DNA from: Acidobacteriota bacterium
GTDB lineage: Bacteria; Acidobacteriota; UBA6911; JACQSX01
Reading direction: 5' to 3'
Length of the DNA stretch: 34,100 nucleotides
Assembly: GCA_036507075.1 (NCBI GenBank)
Contig: DASXQR010000042.1
Span: 1 to 34,100 of the forward strand
Shown: positions 3,274 to 30,534 of the stretch, one piece after another
Position numbering within the stretch: position 1 is the stretch's first letter
Layout of the letters: every line of letters starts with the position of its first letter
The notes under the pieces: model-generated
What the model was told of the DNA's origin: nothing
The model's input: the letters and a program-made list of their open reading frames with translations, nothing else
Database searches by the model: none
Program-made: the position numbers and the translations under genes

Positions 3274-3478
3274 CTGTTGTCCGTTGTCCGTGGTCCGTTG
3301 TCAGTCGCCGGCAGCCGCGAATGTTGCCGGTAAGGTTGATGCCTTCGGCTACTAAATAGTTGAAACAAAATAACAAAAGGCTTCCCGCGAACTGTGATTT
3401 TTCCCACCCGGGGACTGCGGAATACCGGCAAGCGACCGCCGGCTACGGACAACAGACCACTGACTGCGGGCAACGGAC
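3274..3478. repeat. Palindromic element with CCGTTGT / ACAACGG heptamer arms (family B)
   Basis: Left ctgttgt ccgttgt ccgtggt ccgttgt cagtcgc...ttgccggta; right taccggcaa...ctacggacaacagaccactgactgcgggcaacggac; about 90-nt spacer. Confidence 0.8.
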
Positions 3479-3498
3479 GAGTGACCAGCAGTGATCAT

Positions 3499-3528
3499 TT
3501 GACTGTCGCTGCGCAACTGCTCTAAACT
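3499..3528 (+). promoter_or_regulatory. Putative sigma70 promoter for tatA-tatC-HAD
   Basis: TTGACT (3499-3504) N18 TAAACT (3523-3528). Confidence 0.5.
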
Positions 3529-3556
3529 TGAGATCCATAAGAGGTCGAAGAATACT

Positions 3557-3802
3557 ATGTTTGGTTCTCTGGGTTTTAGCGAGATTCTCATTATTTTCGT
3601 GATTGCTCTCATCGTTTTCGGTCCGCGAAAGCTGCCCGAGCTGGGGAAGTCTCTCGGCAGAGGACTTTCTGAATTCAAGAAGGCCAGCAACGACTTGAAG
3701 CGAACCTGGGAAGACGAGGTAAAGGCCGAAGATGAGAAACTCCGCCAGCTTACCAATCTTTCAGAACCGCCCCCCACGCATCCGGACGACCTGAATTCCT
3801 GA
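3557..3802 (+). CDS. tatA: Twin-arginine translocase TatA/TatE subunit
   Basis: [35 protein letters not shown] signature. Confidence 0.93.
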
Positions 3803-3809
3803 TTGATTC

Positions 3810-4604
3810 ATGATCGACCCGCAGGAGCGCGACCCGGAAGAGGAGCTTCCAGATGAGGGAGAACTCTCCGATAAGATGTCTTTTCTGGAGCATCTGGACG
3901 AGCTCCGTACGCGGTTGATCTATTCGATCATTTCCATCGCAGTGGCCTTCGTTGTCACGTTTTATTACTACGCTCCCATCTTCTACTTTATGGAAGCGCC
4001 ACTGAGGAAGGTTATGCCTCCGGGGCAGGACAAGCTTTATTTTATTGCACCGACGGAGGGCTTCGGGCTGTCGATGAAGGTTGCGTTCGTGGCGGCGATA
4101 TTTCTGGCGTCGCCCTTTCTGATCTGGCAGCTCTGGCTGTTTATCTCGCCCGGCCTCTACCGCAAAGAGAAAAAGTACGTTCTCCCTTTTCTGCTGAGCT
4201 CGACAGTGCTGTTTTTGTCCGGCGGCGCCTTTGGTTATTACATCCTGCTGCCAGGCACACTGAAGTTCCTGATCTACTTCAATCCGGGCATGACTTATTT
4301 GCCGAAGGCTTCGGAGTACTTCGGCATTGTTACCTGGATCATGCTGGGCATGGGAGGAATTTTTCAGTTGCCTGTGCTGATTGCATTCCTCTCGATTTTC
4401 GGAATCGTCACGCCGCGGTTTCTGATCCATAATTTTAAATACGCCTTCCTGCTCGCCTTTGTTCTGGGCGCCGTGATCTCTCCCACCGGTGATCCGTTCA
4501 ATCTGATGATCTATTCCGTCCCTCTCGTTGTCCTGTATCTGGTCGGCATCGGTGTTTCTTTCGTGTTTGCAAAACTGCGGAAGAAGCGCGAGCGGGGCCT
4601 CTGA
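3810..4604 (+). CDS. tatC: Twin-arginine translocase TatC
   Basis: MSFLEHLDELRTRL, WLFISPGLYRKEK, GGIFQLP, ISPTGDP; multiple TM segments. Confidence 0.95.
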   Translation: MIDPQERDPEEELPDEGELSDKMSFLEHLDELRTRLIYSIISIAVAFVVTFYYYAPIFYFMEAPLRKVMPPGQDKLYFIAPTEGFGLSMKVAFVAAIFLASPFLIWQLWLFISPGLYRKEKKYVLPFLLSSTVLFLSGGAFGYYILLPGTLKFLIYFNPGMTYLPKASEYFGIVTWIMLGMGGIFQLPVLIAFLSIFGIVTPRFLIHNFKYAFLLAFVLGAVISPTGDPFNLMIYSVPLVVLYLVGIGVSFVFAKLRKKRERGL

Positions 4605-4608
4605 TTTC

Positions 4609-5451: not shown

Positions 5452-5490
5452 TCTGAATGCGGAATGCTGAATGCGAAATGCCGAATGCGG
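5452..5490. repeat. Orphan GAATGCG heptamer arm (family A)
   Basis: tctgaatgcggaatgctgaatgcgaaatgccgaatgcgg directly after the HAD stop codon; no complementary arm nearby. Confidence 0.8.
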
Positions 5491-5497
5491 AGGCGGA

Positions 5498-5597
5498 CCG
5501 TTGTCAGTGGTCCGTTGTCAGTTGTCAGTGGTTGGTCGTGGCACCGACATCTTTGAATTCGTGAAATTCGTGAAATTCGTGAAATTCGTGATCCAAC
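5498..5597. repeat. Left composite arm (5x CCGTTGT-type heptamer + 4x GAAATTCGT 9-mer) overlapping the dusB 3' end
   Basis: ccgttgt cagtggt ccgttgt cagttgt cagtggt...gcacc gacatc tttgaattc gtgaaattc gtgaaattc gtgaaattc gtgatccaac; inverted partner at 6563-6653. Confidence 0.88.
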
Positions 5598-6550
5598 AGG
5601 AACTCGGCAAGGACCCTGCGCGCGCCTTCTATATCCTGGGCGTAAAAGACGGCGCTGCGAAATTCGGCGGAATCGGGAAGACCTTTGGTGAAGCGGCCTA
5701 CCAGGTTCTTGATCTTTCCGAGGGCCGCTTCCGGTGTGGAATCCGAGATGATGCTTTCGAATAGCTCGAATAAGATCCGGTAGGTGAGCCGGCGATCGGG
5801 AATTTCGAAGCTGCCGGTTCGCAGCAACTGGAGGCTCTGCCGGAAGATCCAGGGATTGGCGGTCGCCCCGCGTCCGATCATCACCGCGTCGCAACCGGTC
5901 TCTTGCAGCATTCGAAGCGCATCCTGGGCTGTTTTGACATCGCCGCTGCCGATCACCGGAATATCCATCTCCTTTTTCAGCAGCGCAATCAGCGACCAGT
6001 CCGCGCCTCCAGAGAATTCGGCCACACGGGTGCGCGGATGCAACGTCACCGCGGCAACGCCGACCTGGCGCGCCATGCGCGCAATTTCAAGGAAGTTCCT
6101 GGAATTATCATCCCAGCCCGCCCGGATTTTGATCGTCAGCGGAATCGTCAAGGCCTCCTTGACAGCCTGAACGATGTCGCGCAGCAGTTCGGGCTCGCGC
6201 ATCAGTCCGCATCCGCCGCCGCCTTTGACAATCTTTTTCGCCGGGCAACCCACGTTGATATCGATCATGTCCACGCCGGCGGCTTCTGCCATCCGCGCCG
6301 CCCGAGCCATGGTTTCCGGGTCCGCGCCGAAAAGCTGGATACCGACCGGGCGTTCTTCTTCCGAATAGCGCATCATTTTGAGCGTCTTCTGATTCTCGCG
6401 CACGATGCCTTCGACGCTGATCAGTTGTGAATAGACAAACCCGCAGCCTCCCAGCCGCTTGATGGTGCGGCGAAAGTGAGTGTCGGTCACTGCCGCCATG
6501 GGAGCGAGCACGAAGGGTGATCTGATTTCAATGTTGCCGATGTGGAACAC
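5525..6550 (-). CDS. dusB: tRNA-dihydrouridine synthase B
   Basis: LAPMA, DINVGCPAKK, TIKIRAGW, TLHPRT, GSGDV, VMIGRG motifs. Start is probably the GTG at 6550 (MFHIGNIEI), alternative 6571. The tail HEFHEFHEFHEF is repeat-encoded. Confidence 0.92.
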   Translation of the reverse strand: MFHIGNIEIRSPFVLAPMAAVTDTHFRRTIKRLGGCGFVYSQLISVEGIVRENQKTLKMMRYSEEERPVGIQLFGADPETMARAARMAEAAGVDMIDINVGCPAKKIVKGGGGCGLMREPELLRDIVQAVKEALTIPLTIKIRAGWDDNSRNFLEIARMARQVGVAAVTLHPRTRVAEFSGGADWSLIALLKKEMDIPVIGSGDVKTAQDALRMLQETGCDAVMIGRGATANPWIFRQSLQLLRTGSFEIPDRRLTYRILFELFESIISDSTPEAALGKIKNLVGRFTKGLPDSAEFRSAVFYAQDIEGARRVLAEFLLDHEFHEFHEFHEFKDVGATTNH

Positions 6551-6653
6551 GAATTTCAACAGGTTGGTCACGAATTACACGAATTACACGAATTTCACGA
6601 ATTCAAAATTCGTGGTGCAACAACTGACAACTGACAACGGACAACGGACAACG
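6547..6653. repeat. Right composite arm (CACGAATT(T/A) 9-mers + ACAAC(T/G)G heptamers) between the blaI stop and the dusB start
   Basis: gttggtcac gaattacac gaattacac gaatttcac gaattcaaa attcgt ggtgc aacaactg acaactg acaacgg acaacgg acaacg. Confidence 0.88.
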
Positions 6654-7118: not shown

Positions 7119-7144
7119 GTTTTGAAGTCAGCGAGCCAGGCGCA

Positions 7145-7180
7145 TTGGTGGTAAAGAAAGAACGGACCACCAAGACACCA
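7145..7180. repeat. Degenerate ACCAAG(A/G)C octamer hairpin (family F)
   Basis: ttggtggt...accaccaagacacca; same unit as at 22388-22443 and 28952-28994. Confidence 0.5.
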
Positions 7181-7250
7181 GGCGAGGTGTTGCAACTTGG
7201 ACATTGAGCGCAGGCTCAGTCGAGCAGGATCTCTGAGGAGGCCCGGCGCC

Positions 7251-8266: not shown

Positions 8267-8398
8267 AAATTTTCACCACAGAGGCTTAGCGCGGCGAAGC
8301 CGCAACCAAAAGTCAAGGAGAGACGGCCTGAGGGCCGTCTCTCTGCGGTGTACTGGCAAGCTGAGACGGCCCGCAGGCCGTCTCTCCGGTGAAAATTT
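8267..8398. repeat. Nested element: outer AAATTTTCACC inverted ends, GCGGCGAAGCCGCAACCAAA cap and a REP-like doublet
   Basis: Outer IR 8267-8277 / 8388-8398; two GAGACGGCC-N-GGCCGTCTC palindromes; 8290-8388 matches the reverse complement of 34002-34100 at 96/99 nt. Confidence 0.85.
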
Positions 8399-9312
8399 TA
8401 AACACCCATTTTTAGATTTTCCGGGTAAACCCTGACATTGAGCCTTTTCTTCAGGTCCCCAATGCGGGTCTGGATCGCGGAACTTTCCTTGTCCGCCAGA
8501 AGCTTCTCAAAAATCTGATCCTTCACCTCGAAAAACTTCTGCCGGTGGCTGCGAATCCGCTCATCCACCAGAAAAAGATGATATCCCAAATCGCTTTTCA
8601 CGGGCGCACTAATTTGCCCAGCTCGCAGCCTGAAAACGGCGCTCTCAAAGGCTTCCGGCAGGTCTCCCTGCTTGAAAGTGCCCACCTCGCCATTGCGCGA
8701 GGCGCTCGGCGCCCGGGAAAACTTTCGCGCCGCCTGGATGAAGGCTTCCACAGGCTGGCGCTGCAACTGGCGATGGAGCCTCTGGGCCAGCACTTCATCC
8801 GCCACCAGGATTTCACGTACGTGGACGGTCTCGGGTTGCAGAAACTGAAGCTGGTTGAGCTCAAAGTAGGTCTCAGCCTCATCCAGGCGGACCTGAACTG
8901 CAGCAGAAATGTTGGATTTGATCCATTTCTGAACACGGAGGTCGTCGCGCACGGCACGGATCAGCTCCGGATTAGCCAGATCGGTCGAAGTTGTCATTCC
9001 CAGCTTCAACAGGTTCTCGCGCACGTCCTCGTCATCCACGTAAGTTCTGTCCCGCTCGGCCACATGGAGAAGGATCTCGTGGTCCACGAAAAGATTAAAC
9101 AGCTCAGATTCGTCCTGGTGTTCGTCCAGCCTGAGCTTGGCGGAACGAAACCGCTGCCAATCGGTTGTGGTAATTACGCGGTCCTCGATCTTAACCACCG
9201 GAAGTGCGCCTTTCGCTGGCGAGCCCGCGTGACGCGATTGACACGCAGGCGCCGCCAGGAGCATCAGGCAGAGCAGGCGGACTCCTGGCTGCATCCGTGG
9301 AAATGATCTCAC
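8398..9312 (-). CDS. PpiC/PrsA-type peptidyl-prolyl isomerase, probable lipoprotein
   Basis: VHVREILV, ARKFS, NGEVG, SAPVKSDLGYHLF; signal LLCLMLLAAPAC; AGGAG RBS before GTG 9312 (alternative ATG 9294). The ORF-track extension to 9603 is repeat sequence. Confidence 0.82.
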   Translation of the reverse strand: MRSFPRMQPGVRLLCLMLLAAPACQSRHAGSPAKGALPVVKIEDRVITTTDWQRFRSAKLRLDEHQDESELFNLFVDHEILLHVAERDRTYVDDEDVRENLLKLGMTTSTDLANPELIRAVRDDLRVQKWIKSNISAAVQVRLDEAETYFELNQLQFLQPETVHVREILVADEVLAQRLHRQLQRQPVEAFIQAARKFSRAPSASRNGEVGTFKQGDLPEAFESAVFRLRAGQISAPVKSDLGYHLFLVDERIRSHRQKFFEVKDQIFEKLLADKESSAIQTRIGDLKKRLNVRVYPENLKMGV

Positions 9313-9350: not shown

Positions 9351-9547
9351 AATGCAGATTTCGGAATGCGGAATGCGGAATAGAGGAAGAACCGTATACG
9401 TCCACGACACGTACACGCTTACCGTTAGTCGTGGACGTGGTCGTTGACGTGCACGTGAACGTAGACGGCTTTGCCTTTGCTTGTAGCATGGCTCCTGCAG
9501 GTACAGATCTTTCTTTATTCCACATTCCGCATTCCGAAATCCGCATT
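9351..9547. repeat. Family A (GAATGCG) palindrome enclosing a CACGTC/CACGAC hexamer palindrome (family G)
   Basis: 40-nt arms 9351-9390 / 9508-9547, 36/40 complementary; inner ccgtatacgtccacgacacgtacacg...cgtggacgtggtcgttgacgtgcacgtgaacgtagacgg. Confidence 0.9.
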
Positions 9548-12500
9548 GGAACGGCGCTGTATCTCGCCCAGCAGCTCGACGATCTCCGCGGTGATGTCGT
9601 CAAGCCTGGTGTGCTGCGTCCGCAGCCGCAGCACGCCGCCCGGACTGAGCGTCAGCATCCGGCTGTGCTTGACCATCTCGATCAGCTTTTCTGAGTCAAT
9701 CCTGGCGTCACTGGCAAACTTTAATAAGATCTCGCCGCCCTTCCGATCGAGGGAAATAATGTGGAGTTGTTCCGCTATCAAGCGGAGTCGCGCGTAATAA
9801 AACAAGTTCTCCACCGGCTTCGGGAACTGACCGTATCGATCCAGGATTTCCTCGCGCATCTTCTGCAAGTCTTGCGCGTCGCGGGCGCTGGATATTCGTT
9901 TGTAGAGGCGCAGTCGCTGGTTGGTTTCTTCGATGTAGTGCTCGGGAATACGGATGTCAAACTGCAGATCGATGCTGGTTCGGAAATCCTCCTCCACCTG
10001 CTCTCCGCGAAGCTCGCGCACGGTGCGCTCCAGAAGCTGGGTGTAAAGCTCAAATCCAATCGCGTTGATCTGGCCGTGCTGCTCGCCGCCGAGCAGATTA
10101 CCGGCACCGCGGATTTCAAGGTCCAGGGCCGCAACTCGAAATCCGGCGCCCAATTCGCTGAATTCGCGAATGGCAGCAAGGCGCTTTCGGGCAACCGCTG
10201 AAATCAAGTCACCCGGCGGAATCAGAAGATAAGCGTAAGCGCGCCGGTCTGAGCGTCCGACGCGCCCGCGCAATTGATAAAGCTGGGAGAGGCCGTAACG
10301 GTCTGCTCGATTAATCAGAATCGTGTTGGCGCGAGGGATATCCAGACCATTCTCGATAATGGTGGTGCAGACCAGCACGTCGGATTGGTGCTGAACGAAC
10401 CTGAGCATCACTTCTTCCAGCTCCTTCTCCGACATTTGCCCGTGGCCCACCGCGACGCGCGCCTGGGGACAAATTCGCTGCACCAGATTGGCCATCGAAT
10501 AAATGCTCTCCACCCGATTGTGGACAAAGAAGACCTGGCCTTCACGCTGCAGTTCCAGTTCGATGCCGGACCGGATAATATCCTGGCTGAACTTCAGCAC
10601 GCTGGTCTGGATCGACATTCGATCCTGCGGCGGCGTCTCAATAATCGACAAGTCACGCAATCCAAGAAGCGACATGTGCAGCGTGCGCGGAATGGGCGTT
10701 GCCGACAGGGTGAGGACGTCTACCTTGGTCTTCATTTTCTTGAGCCATTCTTTCTGCGCCACGCCGAACCGCTGTTCTTCATCCACTATAACCAGCCCGA
10801 GATCGAAAAACCTGACATCCCTGGAGAGAATCCGATGCGTTCCAATCAGAATGTCAATCTTTCCTTCCTCGGTACGCTTGACGAGTTCCTTCTGCTCGAC
10901 CTTGTTGCGGAAACGGCTGATCATCTCCACGGTTACCGGGAAAGCTTTGAAGCGCTCCCGAAAAGTGGTGTAGTGCTGGAACGCAAGCACAGTGGTGGGA
11001 GCAAGTACCGCCACCTGCTTTTTGTCCAGCATCGCTTTGAAAGCTCCCCGCATGGCCACTTCCGTCTTGCCGTATCCCACGTCCCCGCAAATCAGCCGGT
11101 CCATGGGACGCGGGGACTCCATATCGCGCTTCATTTCGCGAATGGCCGATTCCTGATCGGGAGTTTCTTTGAACTCGAAGCTGTCTTCGAACTCGCGCTG
11201 CAGGCCGTCGTCTGTGTTGAATGCAAAACCGGACACCGTTTCCCGCTGGGCATACAACCGCAATAGTTCTTCGGCCATGTCGCGCATGGCCTTCTTTACC
11301 CGCGACTTTGTCTTCTCCCAGGTAACCCCGCCGAGTTTGTCCAGCGCGGGCCGCGCGCTGCCGGCGCCCGAGTATTTTTGAATTAGATCGACGCGCTCGA
11401 CGGGCACGTAGAGCTTCGCGTCGTCCCGATAGGTGAGCAGAACGAATTCCCTGGTTGTGTCGGCGACTCCGATGCGAGTCAATCCGTGGAATACTCCAAT
11501 GCCATGATCCACATGGACCACGTAATCCCCTTCTTTAAGGTCGCGCAGATCGGAAATGAAAACTCCCTTGTGATCACGCTGCACGTCGCGGTGGGCCTGC
11601 TTCTTCTCCTCGCCGAAAACATCCCGCTCGCGATAGAAGGAGAGGTGGGAGTCGGGCAGGCTGAAACCGTGCGACAGCGCTCCGGTGCTGACGAATAACG
11701 GGGAGTCCGCCTCTGCGGCAGCCTGTCCGATCTGTGCCGCCAGGCCGTAGTCACGAAAGATGTCCCGCAGCCGCTCGGCCGTTCCCAGCGTTTCCATGGC
11801 AAAAACGATGCGGTTTCCCTGATCGATGGCTTGCTGCACTTCTTCCACCAAATCGCGAATCGCTCCAGCGAAGCCGCGCACGGCGGGAGCCGCGAAGTGT
11901 GTCGGCTGGATGGGCCCGGATCGCCGAACTTCCAGTTCCGAAATTTCCAGGGTGGTCGAAAAACCGGCCGGCTGCCGGCTGAAGAAAAGTTCCGTGGGGG
12001 AAAGCACCAGATCGCGCGCCTGATTTCTGATCTCGAACTGCTCTTGAAGCTGCTGCCATGCCTTGACGCGCTGTTCCTCCAGCCATTCCGGTTCCGGCAG
12101 CACCAGCACCGCGTCTGCGGCGTAATCAAACACAGAGGCGTTTCTGGGGATGGTCAATGGAAGAAGAAACTCGATCCCTTGAAAGGACTGCCCGTGTTCA
12201 GCGAACAAGAGCCGCTCATCGAAAGCGTAACCGTATTCTCCACCGCCCCAGCGTCGCAAGGCGGTTTCGTTCCACTGCTGCATCTGCTCCACACCGGGGC
12301 TGTCTTCACGCATCGGAAGAATAGTGAACTGCGAAGCGTAGCTTATGCTTCGCTGCGTCACAGGATCGAAGTAACGCAGCGATTCAATCGTGTCACCGAA
12401 GAACTCCAGACGGACCGGATTTTGTTCCTGAGGAGAATAAAGGTCCACAATGCCGCCGCGATGCGCGAAGTCGCCGTAGCTGCTGACCGGGTCTTCATCC

Positions 12501-13009
12501 ACGTATCCCATCCGTCGGAGGCCGGCCGTCAGTTCTTCAAGGGCGACGCTCATTCCGGCTTCCAGCCGGATCCAACTCTCCTGGAAATGATGCGGCGCGT
12601 TAAGCTTTTGAATCCATGACCGAAGGGGGACGATCAGGAAGTCGGCCTGGCGCTGAAGCGCGCGCCATAGAGCCACTACCCGCTGCTCGGCGATTTCCGG
12701 GTGCGTGGAAATGCCCCGGTACGGATCGGTCTCGGAGGCGGGGAGGATCGCGATCTCGCCTTCAGTGGCGAAAAGATGTTTGAAGAAATTCAATTCACGT
12801 TGCAGGGATTCCGCGCCGCGGTTGTCCTGAGTAACCCAGACAAAACGCCGGCCGGTCTGCTTCCTGAGCAGCGTCAGAAAAAGCGCCGCGGAGCTCGAGT
12901 TCAGTCCCGACACACTCAGGTGCGGTTGGGAGATGGATTGGGAAAGCTGTTTGAAACCCGGATGGCTTTCGAGTGCTGCCAACAGGGTTCCCTGTAAAAC
13001 TTCTTTCAA
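9515..13009 (-). CDS. mfd: Transcription-repair coupling factor
   Basis: GDYVVHVDHGIG, RLICGDVGYGKTEVA, VDEEQRFGV, QLRGRVGRS, DLEIRGAGNLLG; TTG start with AGGAG RBS. Confidence 0.97.
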   Translation of the reverse strand: MKEVLQGTLLAALESHPGFKQLSQSISQPHLSVSGLNSSSAALFLTLLRKQTGRRFVWVTQDNRGAESLQRELNFFKHLFATEGEIAILPASETDPYRGISTHPEIAEQRVVALWRALQRQADFLIVPLRSWIQKLNAPHHFQESWIRLEAGMSVALEELTAGLRRMGYVDEDPVSSYGDFAHRGGIVDLYSPQEQNPVRLEFFGDTIESLRYFDPVTQRSISYASQFTILPMREDSPGVEQMQQWNETALRRWGGGEYGYAFDERLLFAEHGQSFQGIEFLLPLTIPRNASVFDYAADAVLVLPEPEWLEEQRVKAWQQLQEQFEIRNQARDLVLSPTELFFSRQPAGFSTTLEISELEVRRSGPIQPTHFAAPAVRGFAGAIRDLVEEVQQAIDQGNRIVFAMETLGTAERLRDIFRDYGLAAQIGQAAAEADSPLFVSTGALSHGFSLPDSHLSFYRERDVFGEEKKQAHRDVQRDHKGVFISDLRDLKEGDYVVHVDHGIGVFHGLTRIGVADTTREFVLLTYRDDAKLYVPVERVDLIQKYSGAGSARPALDKLGGVTWEKTKSRVKKAMRDMAEELLRLYAQRETVSGFAFNTDDGLQREFEDSFEFKETPDQESAIREMKRDMESPRPMDRLICGDVGYGKTEVAMRGAFKAMLDKKQVAVLAPTTVLAFQHYTTFRERFKAFPVTVEMISRFRNKVEQKELVKRTEEGKIDILIGTHRILSRDVRFFDLGLVIVDEEQRFGVAQKEWLKKMKTKVDVLTLSATPIPRTLHMSLLGLRDLSIIETPPQDRMSIQTSVLKFSQDIIRSGIELELQREGQVFFVHNRVESIYSMANLVQRICPQARVAVGHGQMSEKELEEVMLRFVQHQSDVLVCTTIIENGLDIPRANTILINRADRYGLSQLYQLRGRVGRSDRRAYAYLLIPPGDLISAVARKRLAAIREFSELGAGFRVAALDLEIRGAGNLLGGEQHGQINAIGFELYTQLLERTVRELRGEQVEEDFRTSIDLQFDIRIPEHYIEETNQRLRLYKRISSARDAQDLQKMREEILDRYGQFPKPVENLFYYARLRLIAEQLHIISLDRKGGEILLKFASDARIDSEKLIEMVKHSRMLTLSPGGVLRLRTQHTRLDDITAEIVELLGEIQRRSNADFGMRNVE

Positions 13010-13094
13010 TCAAACTCCTTGTTTGGAAAGGCGATCTACAATTTTACACACCCTGGCTTGCCGACAGTGATGCTGATTGTCTTTATCCTGCTGA

Positions 13095-13196
13095 GAATGC
13101 GGATTTCGGAATGCGGAATGCGGAATAGGGAAGGGATTTGCTTTCAGTTGCGAGGCCCGAAGATATTCCGCATTCCGCATTCCGAAATCCGCATTC
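13095..13196. repeat. Family A palindrome with perfect 33-bp arms
   Basis: gaatgcggatttcggaatgcggaatgcggaata (13095-13127) is the exact reverse complement of 13164-13196; 36-nt loop. Confidence 0.93.
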
Positions 13197-13245
13197 GGCG
13201 CGGTCCTCGAATGGTATCTTTACAGGCATGATTGGGAGAAATCTG

Positions 13246-13731
13246 TCAGGGGTTCTTTCGAATCTTGTCGATAATCCCGGATGTCGAATATCCGGGCGCA
13301 AATTCAATTTGCCGCACCTGCCCTCCGGCCGCTTCTACCACATCTTTGCCGATGATTTGATCGGTAGGCCAATCGGCGCCTTTTACCAGAACGTCGGGCA
13401 GGACTTCCCGGATTATGCCGTCGGGGTCGGGCTCATCGAATACAGTCACCAGGTTTACAGCGGCGAGAGCCGCCAGCACTTCGGCTCTCTCCAGTTCCGG
13501 CTGGATGGGACGCCCGGCGCCTTTGATCGACCTGACAGAGTGATCGCTGTTAACGGCGACCACCAGCCGATCTCCCAGCGAGCGCGCTTTCTGCAAATAG
13601 CGCACGTGCCCGGGATGCAGCAGGTCGAAGCATCCGTTGGTGAAGACGATCTTCAGACCGGCACTCTTCCATTCTTTCACCCGCCGGCCGGCCTCGGCGC
13701 GCGCCACCACTTTGTCCTTAGCCGATTTCAT
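13246..13731 (-). CDS. rfaE2: D-glycero-beta-D-manno-heptose 1-phosphate adenylyltransferase (stand-alone HldE C-terminal domain)
   Basis: VFTNGCFDLLHPGHVRYL, VAVNSD, PDVLVKGADW, GYSTS. Confidence 0.9.
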   Translation of the reverse strand: MKSAKDKVVARAEAGRRVKEWKSAGLKIVFTNGCFDLLHPGHVRYLQKARSLGDRLVVAVNSDHSVRSIKGAGRPIQPELERAEVLAALAAVNLVTVFDEPDPDGIIREVLPDVLVKGADWPTDQIIGKDVVEAAGGQVRQIEFAPGYSTSGIIDKIRKNP

Positions 13732-15067
13732 TCTGGATCACGCTGGCAATCTGTCTGGCACAATCGCGAACCATCTCTTCCTCTCTGCCTTCGATCATCA
13801 CCCGCGCAATTGACTCCGTTCCGGAATAACGCACCAGTACCCGGCCGTCGTCTCCCAGCCGACTCCTCACTTCAGTGACGGCGCTGTGAATGGCGGGCAC
13901 GGTGGACAATTCCGGTTTGCTGCTGACCGAGACATTAATCAAAATCTGAGGGAATTTTGGAACCGGGGTCGCCAGCGCGCTCAACGCCAAACCGGTTTGC
14001 TGCATTACGCGCAACAACTGAACGGTGGTGAGCAGCCCGTCGCCCGCTACTGACTGGTCGAGCAGCAGAATGTGGCCCGATTGTTCTCCCCCCAGATTGG
14101 CTCCCAGCTCGAGCATTCGCTCCAGGACATAACGGTCCCCCACTTTTGCGCGATCCAGACGAATGGAAAGCTTACTGAGCGCGATTTCCAATCCAATGTT
14201 GGACATGAGCGTGGCAACGACAGTGTCATTCCTGAGCCCCTCACGCTCTTTCAAGAAGCGGGCGAAGATGTACAGGATATGGTCACCGTCGACCACTTGC
14301 CCTCTCTCATCTGAGAAAATTGAGCGGTCGGCATCGCCGTCAAACGCAACACCCAGATCGGCGCCATGTTCCACCACGGCCCGGCACAGGGCCTGCGGGT
14401 GCAGCGCGCCGCATTTCGCGTTGATATTGGTTCCGTCCGGCTGGTTGTAAAGGATCACGACCTCATGACCGAGCGATTGGAATAATTTGGGCGCCAGCCG
14501 GAAAGAAGCGCCGTTTGCGCAGTCAAGCACGATCTTGAACCGGCGGCTCGGGTGATCCGCAGCCGTTCTCAAGAAATCAAGATAGGAATGCATCAGCGGC
14601 TCATTCACCGTGAGCAGCCTGGTGATTAGCGGCTCTGAGGGAGAGTTTTCCGCGGCGGCCCTGCTGCGGAAAACGCGCTCTTCGATTTCATTTTCCGCCT
14701 CATCGGAGATTTTCATCCCGGTATGCGCGAACATTTTGATGCCATTGTCGCGGAACGGATTATGGGAAGCGGAAATGACCACGCCCGCCTGGTAGTTGCT
14801 GGTGCGGGCAAGAAAGCTCACCCCCGGAGTGGTAAATACTCCGGCCAGGTCCGATTTCACGCCTGCCTGGGCCAGGCTTTGGCGGATGATTTCTTCGATC
14901 CAGACTCCGGAGGCGCGCGTATCGCGGCCGATCACAACATGGGCTGTTGTATGATTTTCAACCAGGAACTGCCCCAGTTCTGATCCGATGCGGAATAAAG
15001 TTTTCCCGTCGAGTGGATACTCTCCTGCTACGCCTCGAATTCCATCAGTGCCGAATAATTTTCCCAC
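13718..15067 (-). CDS. glmM: Phosphoglucosamine mutase
   Basis: LFGTDGIRG, VISASHNP, FDGDADR, GGEQSGH, RYSGTE. Confidence 0.95.
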   Translation of the reverse strand: MGKLFGTDGIRGVAGEYPLDGKTLFRIGSELGQFLVENHTTAHVVIGRDTRASGVWIEEIIRQSLAQAGVKSDLAGVFTTPGVSFLARTSNYQAGVVISASHNPFRDNGIKMFAHTGMKISDEAENEIEERVFRSRAAAENSPSEPLITRLLTVNEPLMHSYLDFLRTAADHPSRRFKIVLDCANGASFRLAPKLFQSLGHEVVILYNQPDGTNINAKCGALHPQALCRAVVEHGADLGVAFDGDADRSIFSDERGQVVDGDHILYIFARFLKEREGLRNDTVVATLMSNIGLEIALSKLSIRLDRAKVGDRYVLERMLELGANLGGEQSGHILLLDQSVAGDGLLTTVQLLRVMQQTGLALSALATPVPKFPQILINVSVSSKPELSTVPAIHSAVTEVRSRLGDDGRVLVRYSGTESIARVMIEGREEEMVRDCARQIASVIQNEIG

Positions 15068-15069
15068 GA

Positions 15070-15999: not shown

Positions 16000-16007
16000 G
16001 TCTAAAT

Positions 16008-16362
16008 TCAAAAGTCAAAGGCCAAAAGTCGAAAGCCGAAAGTCGAAGGTCAAAAGTCAAAAGTCGAAAGTCGAAGGTCGAGAGTCGAAGGCGAAATACG
16101 TAATGAGGGGGCAATTTGTAAATGGCTCGTGTCTATTAGCCGGAAGCTTCCGTCACCGAATACCCGACTTTCCGGCAGTCACATTCCATTAATCCGCAAA
16201 CCCCATCGGCAAATCTCCAATCTCTCACTCTCCCAATCCCCAATCCTCATCCGTCACTCGACGCTCGTTATTCAACGTTTTCGACCTTCGACCTTCGACC
16301 TTCGACTTTTGACTTTCGACTTTCGACCTTCGACCTTCGACCTTCGACCTTTGGACTTTCGG
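16008..16362. repeat. Palindromic element with about 12x TCGAA(A/G)G heptamers per arm (family D)
   Basis: Left arm 16008-16096, right arm 16278-16362 (C(C/T)TTCGA units); about 180-nt interior with decayed CCAATC(C/T)-type repeats. Confidence 0.92.
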
Positions 16363-16371
16363 CATTCGGTT

Positions 16372-20204: not shown

Positions 20205-20361
20205 AGGGGAAGGGTTTAGAATCAACAGCCGAGCCGCGCGCGTAAGCAAGCGCACCCTGCCAGGAACAATTACCACCTCAAATTGATTAGAAAGTGCTAA
20301 ATCGAGGGTCCGCTTGCTTACGCGCGCGGTTCGGCTGATGGATCCAAACCCTTACTCCCCC
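20205..20361. repeat. REP-like inverted doublet
   Basis: cagccgagccgcgcgcgtaagcaagcg (20226-20252) vs 20311-20337, 26/27 complementary; flanks aggggaagggttt / aaacccttactcccct extend the stem. Confidence 0.85.
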
Positions 20362-22360: not shown

Positions 22361-22483
22361 CGGGTTCCGGGTTACGAGTTGAGCTGGCTTGGTGCCTTGG
22401 TGGTTCATTAATTGTTTACCACCAAGGCACCAAGGCACCAAGCCAGCTCAACCCGCCAACCCGGAACCCGCCAACCCGTAACC
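22361..22483. repeat. Composite palindrome: outer GGGTTAC-type units (family E), inner ACCAAGGC octamers (family F)
   Basis: cgggttccgggttacgagttgagctggcttggtgccttggtggt / accaccaaggcaccaaggcaccaagccagctcaacccgccaacccggaacccg. Confidence 0.88.
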
Positions 22484-22560: not shown

Positions 22561-22911
22561 GGGGGCGAATTGGGTTCGACGGGAGTCGATGAGGCCGAGG
22601 ATGCATACCGAGGTGTCCGCTCACCTCGTTAAACAAGTGGAAATAAACACAACTGCTGACAATCAGTTAGCTTTAGCTGCTTAATTAATTAAGCGGCCGC
22701 TTTGCCCGTCTTGCCTGCGAGGCGGGGCCAAGGCGTCGAACAGCAGGCTGGCCGGTTTCCGCACCCCGTGGAATCGGCGAGACCAAGGGGTTAGTTGCGG
22801 CGGCTGTTTTGCCCGCTTTTGATCCGTCGCGGCGAATGTATAAAGCAGGCTAAGTATGTAGATTCCCAGGCGGAACACTTTCGGACGCGGGTTCAATTCC
22901 CGCCGCCTCCA
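22561..22911 (+). ncRNA. ssrA: tmRNA; tag (A)ADNQLALAA; CCA not encoded
   Basis: 5' GGGGGCGAATTGGGTTCGACGGG; tag ORF GCT GAC AAT CAG TTA GCT TTA GCT GCT TAA at 22655-22684; 3' GGACGCGGGTTCAATTCCCGCCGCCTCCA. Confidence 0.96.
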
Positions 22912-22917
22912 TTACAT

Positions 22918-22944
22918 CGGAATGCGGAAGGCAGAATGCGGAAT
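22918..22944. repeat. Orphan family A heptamer arm
   Basis: cggaatgcggaaggcagaatgcggaat just after the tmRNA 3' end. Confidence 0.65.
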
Positions 22945-24609: not shown

Positions 24610-24705
24610 TTGAGCACGAATTTCACGAATTTAATTAACGCGAATTCCACGAAGTAATCAAAAGCTTTGTGAAATTCGTGAAATTCGTGTTAATTCGTGA
24701 TCCAA
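24610..24705. repeat. Palindrome with CACGAATTT / AAATTCGTG 9-mer arms (family C)
   Basis: ttgagcacgaatttcacgaattt...gtgaaattcgtgaaattcgtgttaattcgtgatccaa; same unit and GTGATCCAA end as at 5552-5597. Confidence 0.87.
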
Positions 24706-24706
24706 A

Positions 24707-25212: not shown

Positions 25213-25468
25213 ATCACCACAAAGGTGCAGCCCGGCCGCAACCAAAAAGCCGTCGACGTTCACGAGCACGAGCACGTCAACGATCACGTCTTAGGTCTAC
25301 GAACACGACCACATACAACAGCCCTCAGTTCTGCGCGATCTGTGACGAACCGAGCGAAGTCGTAAACGTAATCGTGGACGTTGACGTGCACGTGTTCGCG
25401 AACGTCGACGGCTTTGAAAAACTTTGCCAAAAACAAGAAGTTGGTGTGCTTTGTGCCTTTGGGGTGAT
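25213..25468. repeat. Three-layer nested element: CACAAAG outer arms, CCGCAACCAAA cap, family G hexamer palindrome
   Basis: atcaccacaaagg (25213-25225) / cctttggggtgat (25456-25468); tgcagcccggccgcaaccaaa; inner aaagccgtcgacgttcacgagcacg / cgtgttcgcgaacgtcgacggcttt. Confidence 0.85.
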
Positions 25469-25796: not shown

Positions 25797-26012
25797 AGGT
25801 TACGGGTTGCGAGTTTTCGGGTTAGGGTTTACGGGTTACGAGTTGACGAGTTACGGGTTTTCAGGTTACGGGTTAACCGGTTACGGGCTTTCGTATCAGA
25901 GTTTACTGGTCAGCCCGTAACCCGTAACTCGTCAACCCGTAACTCGTCAACTCGTAACCCGTAAACCCGTAACCGTCAACTCGTCAACTCGCAACTCATC
26001 AACCCGCAACTT
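25797..26012. repeat. Family E palindrome (GGGTTAC / GAGTTGAC units) filling the mrp-DUF971 gap
   Basis: Left arm 25797-25889, 22-nt loop, right arm 25912-26012 (GTAACCC / GTCAACTC units). Confidence 0.92.
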
Positions 26013-27194: not shown

Positions 27195-27284
27195 AAAAAC
27201 TTTAACCGCGAAGAGCGCCAAGAGCGCCAAGAATAGCGGGGTCGCTATCTTTGCGCTCTTGGCGTTCTTTGCGGTGAAGTTTTT
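27195..27284. repeat. Palindrome with CGCCAAGAG 9-mer arms (family H)
   Basis: aaaaactttaaccgcgaagagcgccaagagcgccaagaatagcg / cgctatctttgcgctcttggcgttctttgcggtgaagttttt. Confidence 0.85.
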
Positions 27285-27352
27285 GACCTGGCCAAGATTT
27301 CTTGAATTTTCAATTTTGCCTGTGGTGGAATCAGCGGAAAAGGAGCTATTCG

Positions 27353-27836: not shown

Positions 27837-27896
27837 ATGCTGGAATGGATGATAGTGATACTGCTGATTTTGGTTATCCTGATTTTCTTCTTCTGA
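27837..27896 (+). CDS. Putative 19-aa hydrophobic peptide MLEWMIVILLILVILIFFF
   Basis: GGGAG RBS 6 nt upstream; TGcTAGAGT extended -10 at 27804-27812; single TM-like composition. Confidence 0.55.
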   Translation: MLEWMIVILLILVILIFFF

Positions 27897-27917
27897 TTCG
27901 CGCACCAAGGGAACCTG

Positions 27918-28142
27918 GGTACCGCGCCGCCAGGCCACACGGGGCCAGTCCAGGCGGCTCCACGAATGTCAGTACCGCGGGCGTGAGCCCGCGCGGGGTG
28001 ACTCTGGACGGTTCCACCAATGTCAGTACCGCCGGCGTCAGCCGGCGCCGTTATTCGGACGCAAGCAATTGATGCAGCGCCCAATTCCCGCCAGAGTCTA
28101 GCTGTTTTGACCTGGCTTACGCGCGCTGACGCCCGCGGCACT
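27918..28142. repeat. REP-like cluster of AGTACCGC(G/C)GGCGT(G/C)AGCC(C/G)GCG units
   Basis: Direct units at 27971 and 28025 (54-nt period), a decayed unit at 27918, and an inverted unit ending at 28142. Confidence 0.8.
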
Positions 28143-28163
28143 ACGGACAACGGACCACTGACA
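28143..28163. repeat. Orphan family B right arm
   Basis: acggacaacggaccactgaca upstream of the imuA promoter. Confidence 0.6.
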
Positions 28164-28179
28164 AATTTCTATTTCCCCC

Positions 28180-28229
28180 TTGGCAAAACCTAAAAAACCT
28201 TGCTATTATAGGTGAAAAAAAGGTGAAAA
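28180..28229 (+). promoter_or_regulatory. imuA promoter with candidate SOS operator (11-bp-period direct repeat)
   Basis: TTGGCA (28180) N18 TATTAT (28204) with TG extension; AGGTGAAAAAA-AGGTGAAAA at 28210-28229 overlaps the predicted +1 and the RBS. Confidence 0.6.
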
Positions 28230-28919
28230 GTGCTGGCGCTGCGGAAAATCGAACTGGAGTCTCTTCTTAAAGAAAAGCATCTTTTTCCAAATTTCTCATC
28301 ATTTTCCTCCGACTTTCAGGAGAAGCTCGGCACGTCACTTCCGGCCTTAAATGATCTCCTCTCTGGCGGCTTACCCCGGGGGCAAATTTCCGAAATTACC
28401 GGACCGATCTCTTCCGGCAAAAGCAGTTTGCTGTATTCCGTTCTGGCGCAGGCCACCCGCCAGAGGGAAGTCGTCGCCTGTGTGGATTGCAACCAATTCG
28501 ATCCCTGGTCGGCGTATCGAAGCGGATTGGATTTAAAAAAATTACTCTGGGTGAGATGCTCGCAAAGTTATCAACTTTTGAAAGCCGCCGACATTCTCTG
28601 TAATGCCGGAAATTTTGGAGTGATTGCATTGGACATGATCAACCTTAAGCGTGCCGGGCTATACGGGCCGGACGTCTGGTTTCGATTACAGCGTATCGTG
28701 GAAGGGACTAAAACCGTACTGCTGGTATTGTCTGTTCATCCCCAGGCCCGAACTGCCTCGCGCCTCACGCTGAGCTTGAAAAAGAAAGATCTGTACTGGG
28801 AGGGCAGGCAATCAACTTGGAAATTGCTGCAGGGATTTTCCATGGAAGTCAACTGCGCCCGCGGAAAGCGGGACATGACCAAGGTGCTCGTAAGCCGGCA
28901 ATCCCGTAAAACTGCATAA
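28230..28919 (+). CDS. imuA: ImuA-like RecA-family protein
   Basis: LLSGGLPRGQISEITGPISSGKS, VDCNQFDP, LKKLLWVR; first gene of the imuB-dnaE2 cassette. Confidence 0.85.
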   Translation: MLALRKIELESLLKEKHLFPNFSSFSSDFQEKLGTSLPALNDLLSGGLPRGQISEITGPISSGKSSLLYSVLAQATRQREVVACVDCNQFDPWSAYRSGLDLKKLLWVRCSQSYQLLKAADILCNAGNFGVIALDMINLKRAGLYGPDVWFRLQRIVEGTKTVLLVLSVHPQARTASRLTLSLKKKDLYWEGRQSTWKLLQGFSMEVNCARGKRDMTKVLVSRQSRKTA

Positions 28920-28994
28920 ACCGCGAAGGCGCGAAAACGCGAATAAAAATTAACCACCAAAGACACCAAGCTTTGTTCTTGTGTCTTGGTGGTT
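28920..28994. repeat. Decayed CGCGAA arm plus family F hairpin between imuA and imuB
   Basis: accgcgaaggcgcgaaaacgcgaa followed by aaccaccaaagacaccaag / cttgtgtcttggtggtt. Confidence 0.7.
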
Positions 28995-29010
28995 TTTGAT
29001 TTTTTTAAAC

Positions 29011-30429
29011 ATGCAACGTTACGGAGCCGTTTATTTTCACGCGCAAGTCGGCTCTTCTGGCCCATTGGAATCGCAGGAACTGGCGCTTCAGATTGCCGGC
29101 GATTTCTCGCCCTGGGTCGAGCAGGCCGGCATGAACCTGGTGGTGATGGATTTAAGCGGCTTGTCCCGGCAATGGCCCGATGAAAAAGTCCTGGCCCGCA
29201 CGATTGTTCAAAAATTTCAGGACAAAAATCTGCTCGCTCAAATTGCCATTTCTTCCAATCGCGCCACAGCCCGTCTGGTTGCTTCCGGGACTGCGGGCAC
29301 CTCCATCATTCTTCCGGGCCAGGAAAAAGAATTTCTCGCTCCCCTGCCGTTGGCGCTGCTCGAAGCTCCGCTGGAAATAGGGGAAGTTTTTGATCGCTGG
29401 GGATTAAGAACGCTGGGTGATCTGGCAAATCTCCCCGAAAAAGCTCTGGCGCAACGCCTGGATGAAAAAGGCATGGAGCTCTACCGGCAGGCTTGCGGAG
29501 AGGATGCTACCCCTCTGCTGCCCCACACTCCGATTGAAACATTCGAGGTTTTTTATGCCTTCGACTGGCCGCTGGAAAACAGCGAATCTCTGGCGTTCAC
29601 TTTAAATCATCTACTCGATCGATTGTGCCGCCGGCTCGACTCCCGCTCTCTGGTGGCGGAAGCGGTCAGCCTTTCGATGAATCTGGCCGATGGAAGCGAA
29701 AACGCGCGCCATATCCGTTTTGGGTTCCCCTTAAACGATGCCGCTACCATCCTCTCCCTGGTGCGGCTGGATCTGGAAGCCCGGCCCCCGCAAGCCGCCA
29801 TTGAGTCGCTTTTGCTGCGGCTTTATCCTGCGCCTCCCCGGCCGGTGCAATTCTCGCTGGTTGAGCCGCCCATGATTCCTCCCGAAAAGCTGGCCCGTAC
29901 TCTGGCGCGGTTGTGCGCCCTGGTGGGAGACCAAAACGTGGGCTCTCCGGCTTTGCTGGATACTTATCGCCCCGATGCGTTTGAGATGAGACCTTTCGAT
30001 TTAAATCCACCACAGAGACTTCACAGGCGGGGCGGTCGCCAAACAAACTTACCATTGCGGAATGCGGAATGCGGAATGCGGAATAAAGAAAACAGATTCA
30101 CTCTCAATGGAAACAACTCTTCTCTCATTCCGCATTCCGCATTCCCCATTCCGCAATCGGAAGTCGTGATGGCGTTGCGTATTTTCCGACCTTCCCTGCA
30201 GGCGCGGGTAAAGATCGAACGAGTGCGGCCTGTTTCCCTGGAATCCCCCGTTGCCAGCGGAAACATCATCGAGTGCGGCGGTCCCTGGCGAACTTCGGGG
30301 GAGTGGTGGAAGAAAGATCAGCGCTGGGCATGGGATGAATGGGATGTGCTCTTAAACAACGGACAGTTGTACCGACTTTATCGCGATCTGAGCACGGAGC
30401 AGTGGTTTGTTTTCGGAGCATATGACTAG
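29011..30429 (+). CDS. imuB: ImuB, inactive Y-family polymerase homolog, with in-frame palindrome insert
   Basis: FSPWVE, VMDLSG, FLAPLPL, WGLRTLGDLA, GPWRTSGEWW, DEWDV; canonical catalytic motifs not seen. Confidence 0.88.
   Translation: MQRYGAVYFHAQVGSSGPLESQELALQIAGDFSPWVEQAGMNLVVMDLSGLSRQWPDEKVLARTIVQKFQDKNLLAQIAISSNRATARLVASGTAGTSIILPGQEKEFLAPLPLALLEAPLEIGEVFDRWGLRTLGDLANLPEKALAQRLDEKGMELYRQACGEDATPLLPHTPIETFEVFYAFDWPLENSESLAFTLNHLLDRLCRRLDSRSLVAEAVSLSMNLADGSENARHIRFGFPLNDAATILSLVRLDLEARPPQAAIESLLLRLYPAPPRPVQFSLVEPPMIPPEKLARTLARLCALVGDQNVGSPALLDTYRPDAFEMRPFDLNPPQRLHRRGGRQTNLPLRNAECGMRNKENRFTLNGNNSSLIPHSAFPIPQSEVVMALRIFRPSLQARVKIERVRPVSLESPVASGNIIECGGPWRTSGEWWKKDQRWAWDEWDVLLNNGQLYRLYRDLSTEQWFVFGAYD
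30054..30157. repeat. Family A palindrome inside the imuB coding sequence
   Basis: 31-nt arms 30054-30084 / 30127-30157 with one mismatch; translated as LRNAECGMRN...IPHSAFPIPQ. Confidence 0.92.
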
Positions 30430-30432
30430 GCT

Positions 30433-30534
30433 ACGGGTTTCCGAGTTTACGAGTTGACGGGTTACGAGTTGACGAATTGAAAAATTCAAAATTGACTTGT
30501 CAACCCGTAACTCGTCAACCCGCAACCCGCAAAC
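30433..30534. repeat. Family E palindrome filling the imuB-dnaE2 gap
   Basis: acgggtttccgagtttacgagttgacgggttacgagttgacg / ttgtcaacccgtaactcgtcaacccgcaacccgcaaac. Confidence 0.88.

Follow-up and report, generated by a model that had tools for sequence, protein, structure and literature searches.

About twenty loci in a single stretch of acidobacterial DNA hold palindromes of one design, (unit)n, a spacer, and (reverse-complement unit)n, with short units that differ from locus to locus, and this raises the question of what these palindromes are and what spreads them. The stretch, hereafter the window, comprises 34,100 nt and is contig C42 (DASXQR010000042.1) of assembly GCA_036507075.1 (G000), a short-read metagenome bin of 6.1 Mb in 233 contigs with a completeness of 95.7%; C-numbers denote contigs of this assembly. 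A sequence-only reading had described about 20 loci with eight unit families, all of which were found again by Tandem Repeats Finder (59 rows in the window), by an inverted-repeat search (83 inverted pairs), and by direct reading of the sequence (Table 1). We consider that the window loci may be non-autonomous elements without a gene, related to hairpin cassettes in which a gene encodes either a four-helix-bundle protein (23S-IVS/Avd-like; IVS, intervening sequence) or a GxxExxY PD-(D/E)XK protein, and we give this reading an even chance of being correct. The dispersal of the elements, their fixed polarity, their turnover, their patchy distribution, and the link between arm period and cargo gene were all observed.

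Genome-Wide Abundance of Tandem-Armed Palindromes

In the whole genome, 6562 Tandem Repeats Finder rows merged into 4826 short tandem arrays, with dominant periods of 7, 8, and 9 nt (1359, 1172, and 848 arrays, respectively) and with GAATGCG as the commonest unit (372 arrays). Among 4334 arrays with a period of 6–12 nt, same-unit pairs within 300 nt were inverted in 694 cases and direct in 30, and the two orientations were equally frequent beyond 600 nt. For 800 sampled arrays, a partner within 400 nt was found as the reverse complement in 39.8%, as a direct copy in 1.9%, and as the reversed unit in 0.4%. Pairing no better than that of shuffled placement would have spoken against the sequence-only reading; 888 inverted pairs were observed within 3 kb, as compared with about 150 after shuffling of the unit labels (20 shuffles), far above expectation. 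The tandem-armed palindromes are real and genome-wide. An assembly or amplification fold-back artifact might be suspected from the short-read origin of the bin and from public contigs of the same samples (four of the five soil runs found), which end inside arms (pieces 5564-6598, 9518-13106, 13169-16307, etc.). Such an artifact is scarcely credible: four other assemblies and one independent metagenome contig show the same design at syntenic gaps, isolate genomes and complete chromosomes from other phyla contain it as well, and the reading frames at the dus and mfd ends enter the arms in an orderly way.

Arm Classes and Cargo Genes

The sequence-only reading had suggested similar arms around four-helix-bundle and GxxExxY genes, and this was borne out both in this genome and at 60 loci elsewhere. 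The genome contains seven PF05635 loci (23S-IVS protein, four-helix bundle; nine matches) and six TIGR04256 (GxxExxY) loci. None of the nine PF05635 matches lies on C42, and no TIGR04256/PF13366 gene was found in the window, the six loci being on other contigs. Tandem arrays were present within 400 nt of all seven PF05635 loci and of four to five of the six TIGR04256 loci, mostly as inverted same-unit pairs. Around the four-helix-bundle genes, the units were GCAGGAG, TGTCCGT, GTCATTG, CACGTC, CGGGTTA, and GAGAGTGG, and those around the GxxExxY genes were CGCCAAGAA, AATTCGTG, CACGAAGA, and CACAAAGA; every one of them is also among the abundant gene-less families.

We then surveyed 30 loci per gene from other genomes of the phylum. 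Arrays lay within 300 nt of 27 of the 30 four-helix-bundle genes, where the 15 strict inverted same-unit pairs had a period of 7 (13) or 8 (2), and of 26 of the 30 GxxExxY genes, where the 11 strict pairs had a period of 8 (4), 9 (4), or 10 (3) and never 7. The GxxExxY units in these genomes were of the type CACAGAGG or CACGGAGGA, and the window arms CACCAAGG, CGCCAAGAG, CACAAAG, and CACGAATTT match the GxxExxY arm type of the other genomes and of this genome's own copies. Arm period is tied to the cargo gene, and the eight families, previously taken to be unrelated, thereby reduce to two classes. The heptamer (and 6-mer) class, with GAATGCG, CCGTTGT, TCGAAAG, GGGTTAC, and CACGTC, is tied to the four-helix-bundle gene, and the CACNNAG-type 8–10-mer class, with CACCAAGG, CGCCAAGAG/CACAAAG, and CACGAATTT, is tied to the GxxExxY nuclease gene. 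Since the second class shares a CACNNAG-type word, the earlier definition of the elements by their architecture and not by their sequence applies to the heptamer class alone. In each of two gene-less hairpins, the loop is a piece of a four-helix-bundle cassette that has the same arms (C17:39818 vs. C225 and C82:21273 vs. C231); most gene-less hairpin loops match no cassette.

The GxxExxY protein matched PF13366 (PD-(D/E)XK; E 9e-42), with no solved relative found by sequence, and the available text on PF13366 lists its function as unknown and reports multiple transfers (PMC3424549). The four-helix-bundle protein matched PF05635, bAvd-like, and PDB 2gsc, and PF05635 is said, in the accessible part of the source, to resemble Avd, the accessory protein of diversity-generating retroelements (PMC10053308). 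PF05635 was found in 117 of 201 sampled genomes (a tally that includes the unpublished G053, whose sequence was not used) and TIGR04256 in 70 of 201. The sole clear reverse-transcriptase gene of the assembly is at C146:65986-66615 (-) (PF00078, E 8e-44, 403-aa frame), and C146 has no PF05635 match.

Dispersal, Polarity, and Nesting of the Families

The polarity of the arms is fixed within each family: the majority polarity was found in 668 of 685 close pairs, and in GAATGCG at a ratio of 164:0. The canonical GAATGCG form is AATGCGGATTTCGGAATGCGGAATGCGGAAT, a loop of about 45 nt, and the complement; its copies share the end AATGCGGATTTCGG, and a non-repeat end variant, GATTTCG, is identical in many copies. 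The common ends claimed for family copies, AATGCGGATTTCGG, GTGATCCAA, and AAAGCCGTC, are all present in the window sequence. The loops of 111 GAATGCG elements (~45 nt) could be aligned as one diverged family, 57 of them in reverse orientation, and two element copies on different contigs were 89.6% identical over 125 nt, with the identity ending at the arm ends. Across all families, 214 of 558 loops had a homologue within the same family, and the share was high in the 8–9-mer families (e.g., 22/30 and 9/10). The fixed polarity, the common ends, and the loop homologies uphold the earlier view that the families are dispersed rather than products of local slippage.

A local origin without mobility would have slippage make the arrays and template switching or fold-back make their partners, with quasi-palindrome correction holding the two arms similar, and shared units would reflect mutational bias. 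Consistent with this are the arm copy numbers, which may differ strongly within one element (e.g., 19 vs. 4.5 units at C24:19858), the four families with unique loops, the old-unit remnants inside the cdaA-ybbR loop (see below), the many solo arrays, and the absence of target duplications. We nevertheless regard such an origin as rather unlikely, since template switching should yield both polarities, and the recurrent GATTTCG variant, the homologous loops, the near-identical whole elements on different contigs, the recurrence of the same heptamer in the same polarity in more than ten phyla, and the tie between arm period and cargo gene all stand against it.

The nesting of elements, also reported earlier, was confirmed in the sequence. 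GAATGCG stood outside CCGTTGT in 16 nestings and inside in one; a strict nesting order was ruled out, because GAATGCG stands on the inside at C132:16401. That 5' arms are rich in purines or in G/T was a weak trend and not a rule. Stop-free arms carried no signal, because 32 of the 40 top units lack a stop codon on either strand and shuffled units reach 78%. The efp gene (elongation factor P; C62:42047-43069) has a complete GAATGCG element on either side, the two loops being nearly identical and oriented alike, which suggests local copying into a neighboring gap; similar element pairs occur around cdsA (C69) and around further genes on C152 and C88. Downstream of a GxxExxY gene (C37:29550-29620) lies a sequence of about 55 nt that recurs in hairpin loops of at least five arm families (29 matches).

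Turnover at Orthologous Gaps

The sequence-only reading had proposed a comparison of orthologous junctions, and the corresponding gaps in five relatives were empty or held a different unit family. Three genomes of the same family, with protein identities of 55–87%, have conserved synteny from tatC to tilS. The cdaA-ybbR spacer of this genome holds a TCGAAGG hairpin (spacer of 360 nt), that of G001 a GGGAGAGT hairpin (329 nt), that of G003 a GAATGCG/GGATTGC hairpin (173 nt), and that of a metagenome contig whose YbbR is 89% identical a GATTGGC/GACGAAT-type hairpin; no hairpin was found in the spacers of G002 (33 nt) and G005 (same order; 6 nt). A hairpin is therefore present in four of the six genomes, with differing unit families, and the two genes nearly abut in the majority of more distantly related genomes in the class. 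The metagenome contig and the window share the first bases past the stop codon, CGAATGCCGA. As judged from these sequences, the site appears to have stayed occupied while the unit family was replaced. At five further gaps, an element was present in one genome and absent in another.

Genes lying between long inverted arms proved mostly to be ordinary genes (lepB, fumarase, hemE, efp, cdsA, and coxB) with two complete elements of the same family in the adjoining gaps. The dus gene of the window was ruled out as a mobile cargo, as it occupies the same place in G001 without such arms.

Position Relative to Genes and Level of Action

To describe the position of the elements, 674 hairpin loci were placed against 4379 genes from rough gene calls of our own. 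The element start lay at a median of 13 nt past a stop codon (quartiles, 5 and 37), about 10% of the elements overlapped the stop, and the element end lay at a median of 45 nt ahead of a start codon; the reported preference for stop codons holds in this sense. Tandem, convergent, and divergent gaps were occupied in 13.0%, 20.1%, and 12.9% of cases, respectively. At the junctions of 106 GAATGCG elements with clear boundaries, no target duplication of at least 3 nt was found (chance expectation, 1.7 for 3 nt), the check for such duplications having been suggested earlier; the end and flank profiles of the 106 elements showed neither a flank motif nor a conserved terminal tetranucleotide (GTAG/CGTC). 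No T run followed their arms (T, 18–34% at positions +1 to +12), and in the ftsH-folP gap of relatives a classical terminator (GC stem and T run) stands separately beside the hairpins; the hairpins are thus not the terminators.

The ungapped stem had a median length of 31 bp and at least 22 bp in 90% of the hairpins, and five window hairpins folded at -59 to -85 kcal/mol (z ~ -11). The orientation of the loops relative to transcription was random (38 vs. 34; p = 0.72), and G·U-compatible mismatches showed no strand bias (262 sense vs. 277 antisense; p = 0.55). Because of these two results, and because divergent gaps are occupied like tandem gaps, the hairpins are best described as elements at the DNA level, and the data speak for RNA consequences as side effects or symmetric.

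These results also bear on the possibility that the hairpins are structures selected by the host, in which an RNA stem would protect 3' ends, set RNase III sites, or couple translation, and recombination rather than a dedicated enzyme would spread them. The position just past stop codons, the high occupancy of convergent gaps, and the very stable stems agree with this possibility; the cdaA-ybbR hairpin, kept in four of six genomes despite the change of unit, looks like selection for structure, and transcript stability or translational coupling has been proposed for short tandemly repeated repetitive (STRR) sequences, according to the accessible text of that report (PMC2670836). Host selection is still unlikely in our judgment, given the random loops, the lack of a sense-strand G·U excess, and promoter-side gaps as often occupied as tandem ones. 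In addition, G002, G005, and the majority of genomes in the class have no element in the orthologous gaps, carriers are patchy in the phylum (8/201), and ordinary terminators stand separately beside hairpins whose right flank lacks a T run.

Distribution across Phyla

The exact string (GAATGCG)3.5 was found at more than 122 loci, which span over ten phyla. The record titles include Planctomycetota, Acidobacteriota, Chloroflexota, Verrucomicrobiota, Bacteroidota, Clostridia, Myxococcota, Gemmatimonadota, and Nitrospirota, as well as Microbulbifer isolates and one Thermoplasmatota bin. Where both arms fell within the 300-nt flanks, the order was forward-then-reverse in 36 cases and the opposite in 4, the same polarity as in this genome. 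The foreign loops were unrelated to those of this genome (2 weak matches from 111 loops), the end motif AATGCGGATTTCGGAATGCGG occurred at 0 of 122 foreign loci, and four-helix-bundle genes stood beside 2 of these 122 loci in a search with a small profile and flanks of only 300 nt. Among the 201 sampled genomes of the phylum, eight carried a GAATGCG array, with 329 matches here, 53 in G073, and 10 in G063; a reversed control pattern gave no match in the carriers and 3 matches in one other genome, G085. Such a patchy distribution fits horizontal spread with lineage-specific bursts. All eight carriers have PF05635, but the correlation is a weak test because 117 of the 201 genomes have it anyway.

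Evidence against the Cassette Relationship, and a Possible Mechanism of Spread

Several observations weigh against a relationship between the gene-less hairpins and the gene-carrying cassettes. Roughly half of the 800 sampled arrays had no partner. Loops were essentially unique in CCGTTGT (2/23), GGGTTAC (0/15), TCGAAAG (0/8), and GAAATTCGT (0/9), so that only the arms are dispersed in these four families, the whole element being dispersed in others. GAATGCG, the biggest family, has no gene-carrying copy in the assembly, and we know of no catalytic role for the four-helix-bundle protein. Four-helix-bundle proteins sharing a unit were no more alike than others (44.4% vs. 43.6% identity); recognition of particular heptamers by particular proteins is thus unsupported, and there was no signal of co-divergence. 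In the window's cdaA-ybbR hairpin, GATTGG-type remnants of the unit found in the relative occur beyond the left arm as well as within the 170-nt loop; replacement was therefore not a simple (cut-and-paste) insertion of a contiguous element. We saw neither a transposition event nor an excision product, nor any empty site whose flanks could be aligned, the nearest relative being only 89% identical at the protein level, and the distances to stop codons depend on our rough gene calls.

Under the cassette reading, the arms would consist of arrayed, oriented sites that the cargo proteins bind or cut, and these proteins would mobilize or maintain gene-less copies in trans, as REP-associated tyrosine transposases (RAYT) do for the hairpin-forming doublets (REPINs) of repetitive extragenic palindromic (REP) sequences. 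Slippage would lengthen and shorten the arrays. Insertion would take place without target duplication, just past stop codons or into existing hairpins, so that a gap would remain occupied as the unit family turned over. Transcribed stems of 22–85 bp would be substrates of RNase III, as in rRNA intervening sequences; the stem length, the RNase III gene present in the genome, and the precedent of the Coxiella IVS (see below) point in this direction, and cutting of the stems would make the elements tolerable inside operons. The earlier proposal of an enzyme encoded elsewhere stands in part: the elements are likely mobile and probably served in trans, but no mobilizing enzyme was identified, and the HUH/RAYT genes of the genome have other palindromes.

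This last point bears on a REP/REPIN system moved by the HUH Y1 (RAYT-like) transposases of the genome, to which the 12 PF01797 matches and the extragenic, palindromic, high-copy elements without target duplication might point. We find such a system very improbable, since the four Y1 genes situated between long inverted repeats have non-tandem, GC-rich palindromes (e.g., GGCCGCTTCCAGCGGCC) and not tandem-array arms at their flanks, and since the ends of the hairpin elements lack a conserved terminal tetranucleotide. The four genes, of the IS200 type (C107, C122, C223, and C85), look with their palindromes like a separate RAYT/REP system.

Relation to Known Systems

Catalogues of intergenic heptamer arrays, such as STRR and long simple-sequence repeats, go back decades, and the arrays have served for fingerprinting, with no account given of their origin. 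Jackman and Mulligan reportedly wrote, in a title of 1995, of "highly variable but structured intergenic regions", a phrase in line with the turnover of orthologous gaps here, and the STRR2 unit TTGGTCA is a rotation of the ATTGGTC family of this genome. The STRR hairpins between hupS and hupL are described, in the accessible part of the report, as intergenic tandem 7-bp units that are capable of forming hairpins and have an unknown function (PMC2670836). The window elements resemble them in that tandem 7-bp units pair as hairpins in intergenic and operon spacers, and differ in the host, which is recorded as Acidobacteriota, in the number of arrays (~4800), in their dozens of unit families, and in the inclusion of 8–10-mers; fixed polarity, nesting, and a link to two cargo genes are not mentioned in the available portion of that account (PMC2670836).

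The Coxiella IVS has, according to the accessible text, a 28-bp terminal stem that is cut by RNase III, tandem heptamers that vary between strains, and an S23p open reading frame, and it is regarded there as a selfish element (PMC4990558). The layout of an inverted-repeat stem around a PF05635 gene, as in the 23S rRNA IVS of Coxiella and Leptospira, is shared by the seven PF05635 loci of this genome, and the window arms, at 33–105 nt and 84–100% complementarity, are long-stem terminal inverted repeats as in IVS-type cassettes. Unlike the IVS, the window copies are gene-less, number hundreds per genome, and all lie between protein genes or beside the transfer-messenger RNA (tmRNA) gene, none being in a 23S rRNA helix; RNA cleavage is only predicted here. 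The claim that no known analogue combines all the traits therefore went too far, as the hupS-hupL STRR and the Coxiella IVS already combine most of them.

REPIN-RAYT systems, as described in the available portions of two reports, are high-copy extragenic palindromic families without target duplication, in which a small gene linked to rare copies might act in trans (PMC3116915, PMC3733652), and the present elements are like them in these respects. The conserved terminal tetranucleotide GTAG/CGTC given for them in the accessible text (PMC3733652) is lacking here; unlike in REPINs, the arms are tandem arrays and the linked genes encode PD-(D/E)XK and four-helix-bundle proteins and not HUH Y1 transposases. 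REPIN-RAYT is the nearest model of how such a system might work, and the features that define it were looked for here and not found.

TAACTGA heptamer arrays are reported, in the portion of the source at hand, to be common to Beggiatoaceae, cyanobacteria, and Bacteroidetes, with horizontal spread suspected and no mechanism known (MacGregor 2015, PMC4679880). The same text gives them as almost all direct (169 sets vs. one inverted), located just upstream of start codons, and read as sites of a translational regulator (PMC4679880). The spread of one heptamer across distant phyla is common to both cases, and the CAACTGA family of this genome is one base off; in contrast to those direct arrays, the arms here are inverted.

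Finally, miniature inverted-repeat transposable elements (MITEs), such as Correia/CREE, are short and non-coding, have terminal inverted repeats, form transcript hairpins, duplicate their target, and derive from transposase-bearing insertion sequences (IS). The present elements depart from MITEs in having neither a target duplication nor a transposase-bearing parent. A literature search, with most subscription journals outside its scope, found neither GAATGCG repeat strings nor a link of such arms to four-helix-bundle or GxxExxY genes. The system is real, striking, and only partly described before.

More tentatively, the cyanobacterial STRR heptamers, the rRNA intervening sequences, and the hairpins described here might form one class of mobile elements across phyla, distinct from IS, MITEs, REPINs, and integron cassettes. 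In such a class, either an Avd-like four-helix bundle or a PD-(D/E)XK nuclease, some 115 aa in length, would write or read its own tandem-repeat arms, the protein class would set the arm period (7 vs. 8–10 nt), and the elements would target existing hairpins, with the sites staying occupied while the unit family was replaced. To our knowledge, S23p and GxxExxY are widespread small protein families without a known function. Should the arrays prove to be arms of cassettes linked to both proteins, a single testable explanation would cover three loose ends, and DNA may here be moved in a new way that needs no classical transposase. Most spacers are filled by the elements, those of conserved operons included; the elements also rewrite gene ends (dus, mfd) and break short-read assemblies, and they would make strong double-stranded RNA in many transcripts; they are thus relevant to the annotation, binning, and expression studies of soil bacteria.

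Elements and Genes of the Window

The window genes are ordinary housekeeping genes: SLT/LysM, ctpA, tatA, tatC, a haloacid dehalogenase (HAD) hydrolase, dus, blaI, two surA-like peptidyl-prolyl isomerases, mfd, a cytidylyltransferase, glmM, ybbR, cdaA, folP, ftsH, tilS, a sulfatase, mrp, imuA, imuB, and dnaE2. By our reading of the sequence, tandem-array elements occupy about 16 of the 21 gaps of at least 40 nt, including spacers of the conserved cdaA-ybbR-glmM and imuA-imuB-dnaE2 operons (Table 1). The dus frame extends 24 codons into the repeats (5525-5600), past the end of its orthologue, adding about 24 C-terminal residues (DHEFHEFHEF...). The mfd stop codon (TAA, 9515-9517) is inside the right GAATGCG arm, at its inner end (9515-9547).

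Table 1. Tandem-array elements and other features of the window (positions in nt).
Feature	Position	Strand	Arms and arrays	Context
CCGTTGT/CCGTGGT-type heptamer hairpin	3274-3490		arms 3274-3302 and 3446-3490; arrays 3276-3302/3446-3485; ~140-nt loop	divergent ctpA/tatA gap
Solo GAATGCG array, left-arm form	5453-5491			begins 2 nt past HAD hydrolase stop; tandem array 5455-5491
dus left flank	5498-5598		CCGTTGT/CAGTGGT array 5498-5534; (GAAATTCGT)4 + GATCCAA 5552-5598; tandem arrays 5498-5529 (CCGTTGT) and 5556-5591 (GAAATTCGT)	complementary to right flank (85 nt, 84%)
dus right flank	6563-6653		(CACGAATTA)n and short return arm 6563-6616; CAACTGACAACGG array 6613-6653; tandem arrays 6569-6603 and 6620-6653	complementary to left flank
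CACCAAG-type short hairpin, 8-mer class	7140-7190		unit CACCAAGG	blaI/surA gap
GAATGCG hairpin	9351-9547		arms 9351-9396 and 9502-9547, 87%; tandem arrays 9350-9381/9517-9547	
CACGTC-type hairpin	~9391-9470		array 9428-9467	nested in GAATGCG hairpin 9351-9547
Canonical GAATGCG element	13095-13196		arrays 13095-13126/13165-13196; 33-nt arms, 100% complementary, end AATGCGGATTTCGG; 36-nt family-type loop	
TCGAAAG/TCGAAGG heptamer hairpin	16000-16373		arrays 16000-16096/16280-16351; 85-nt arms; ~170-nt unique loop	spacer of cdaA-ybbR-glmM operon
Nested hairpin	22362-22483		outer GGGTTMC/GAGTTGA arms 22362-22402/22449-22483; inner CACCAAGG 8-mer-class arms 22420-22442	between hexapeptide-transferase stop and tmRNA
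tmRNA gene	22561-22914	+		Rfam RF00023, 184 bits
Solo GAATGCG array	22918-22944			4 nt beyond tmRNA 3' end
CACGAATTT/GAAATTCGT 9-mer-class hairpin	24610-24706		arrays 24615-24632/24669-24700	terminates in GTGATCCAA
CACAAAG-type outer arms enclosing CACGTC/CACGAG 6-mer hairpin	25213-25466		inner 25246-25288/25373-25415, 88%	AAAGCCGTC ends
GGGTTAC/GAGTTGAC hairpin	25797-26011		arrays 25797-25887/25905-26011; arms ~90-105 nt	fills DUF971/mrp gap
CGCCAAGAG 9-mer-class hairpin	27196-27284		arrays 27207-27232/27248-27273; 37-nt arms, 84%	
Solo ACGGACA array (right-arm form of CCGTTGT)	28143-28164			found by Tandem Repeats Finder
imuA-imuB-dnaE2 mutasome operon	28230-33662			hairpin elements in both spacers and one inside imuB-like frame
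AAAACGCG array and CACCAAAGACACCAAG hairpin	28918-28995			imuA/imuB spacer; short CACCAAGG-family hairpin near 28950
GAATGCG hairpin	30047-30164		arrays 30056-30084/30126-30155; 38-nt arms, 92%	inside 3' part of annotated imuB-like frame
GAGTTGAC/GGGTTAC hairpin	30432-30532		arrays 30432-30480/30495-30532	imuB/dnaE2 spacer

Palindromes of other types are also present in the window. At 8310-8400 there are two copies of a REP-like hairpin that is GC-rich and non-tandem (GAGAGACGGCC....GGCCGTCTCTC); a DinB_2 gene on C10 is flanked by this motif too. A further non-tandem palindrome, at 20210-20353, has 49-nt arms (88%) of the type GAGCCGCGCGCGTAAGCAAGCG. Sequence of this type was also found in the cytidylyltransferase-mfd spacer of G003 and inside a GAATGCG loop on C228, and it constitutes another dispersed family.

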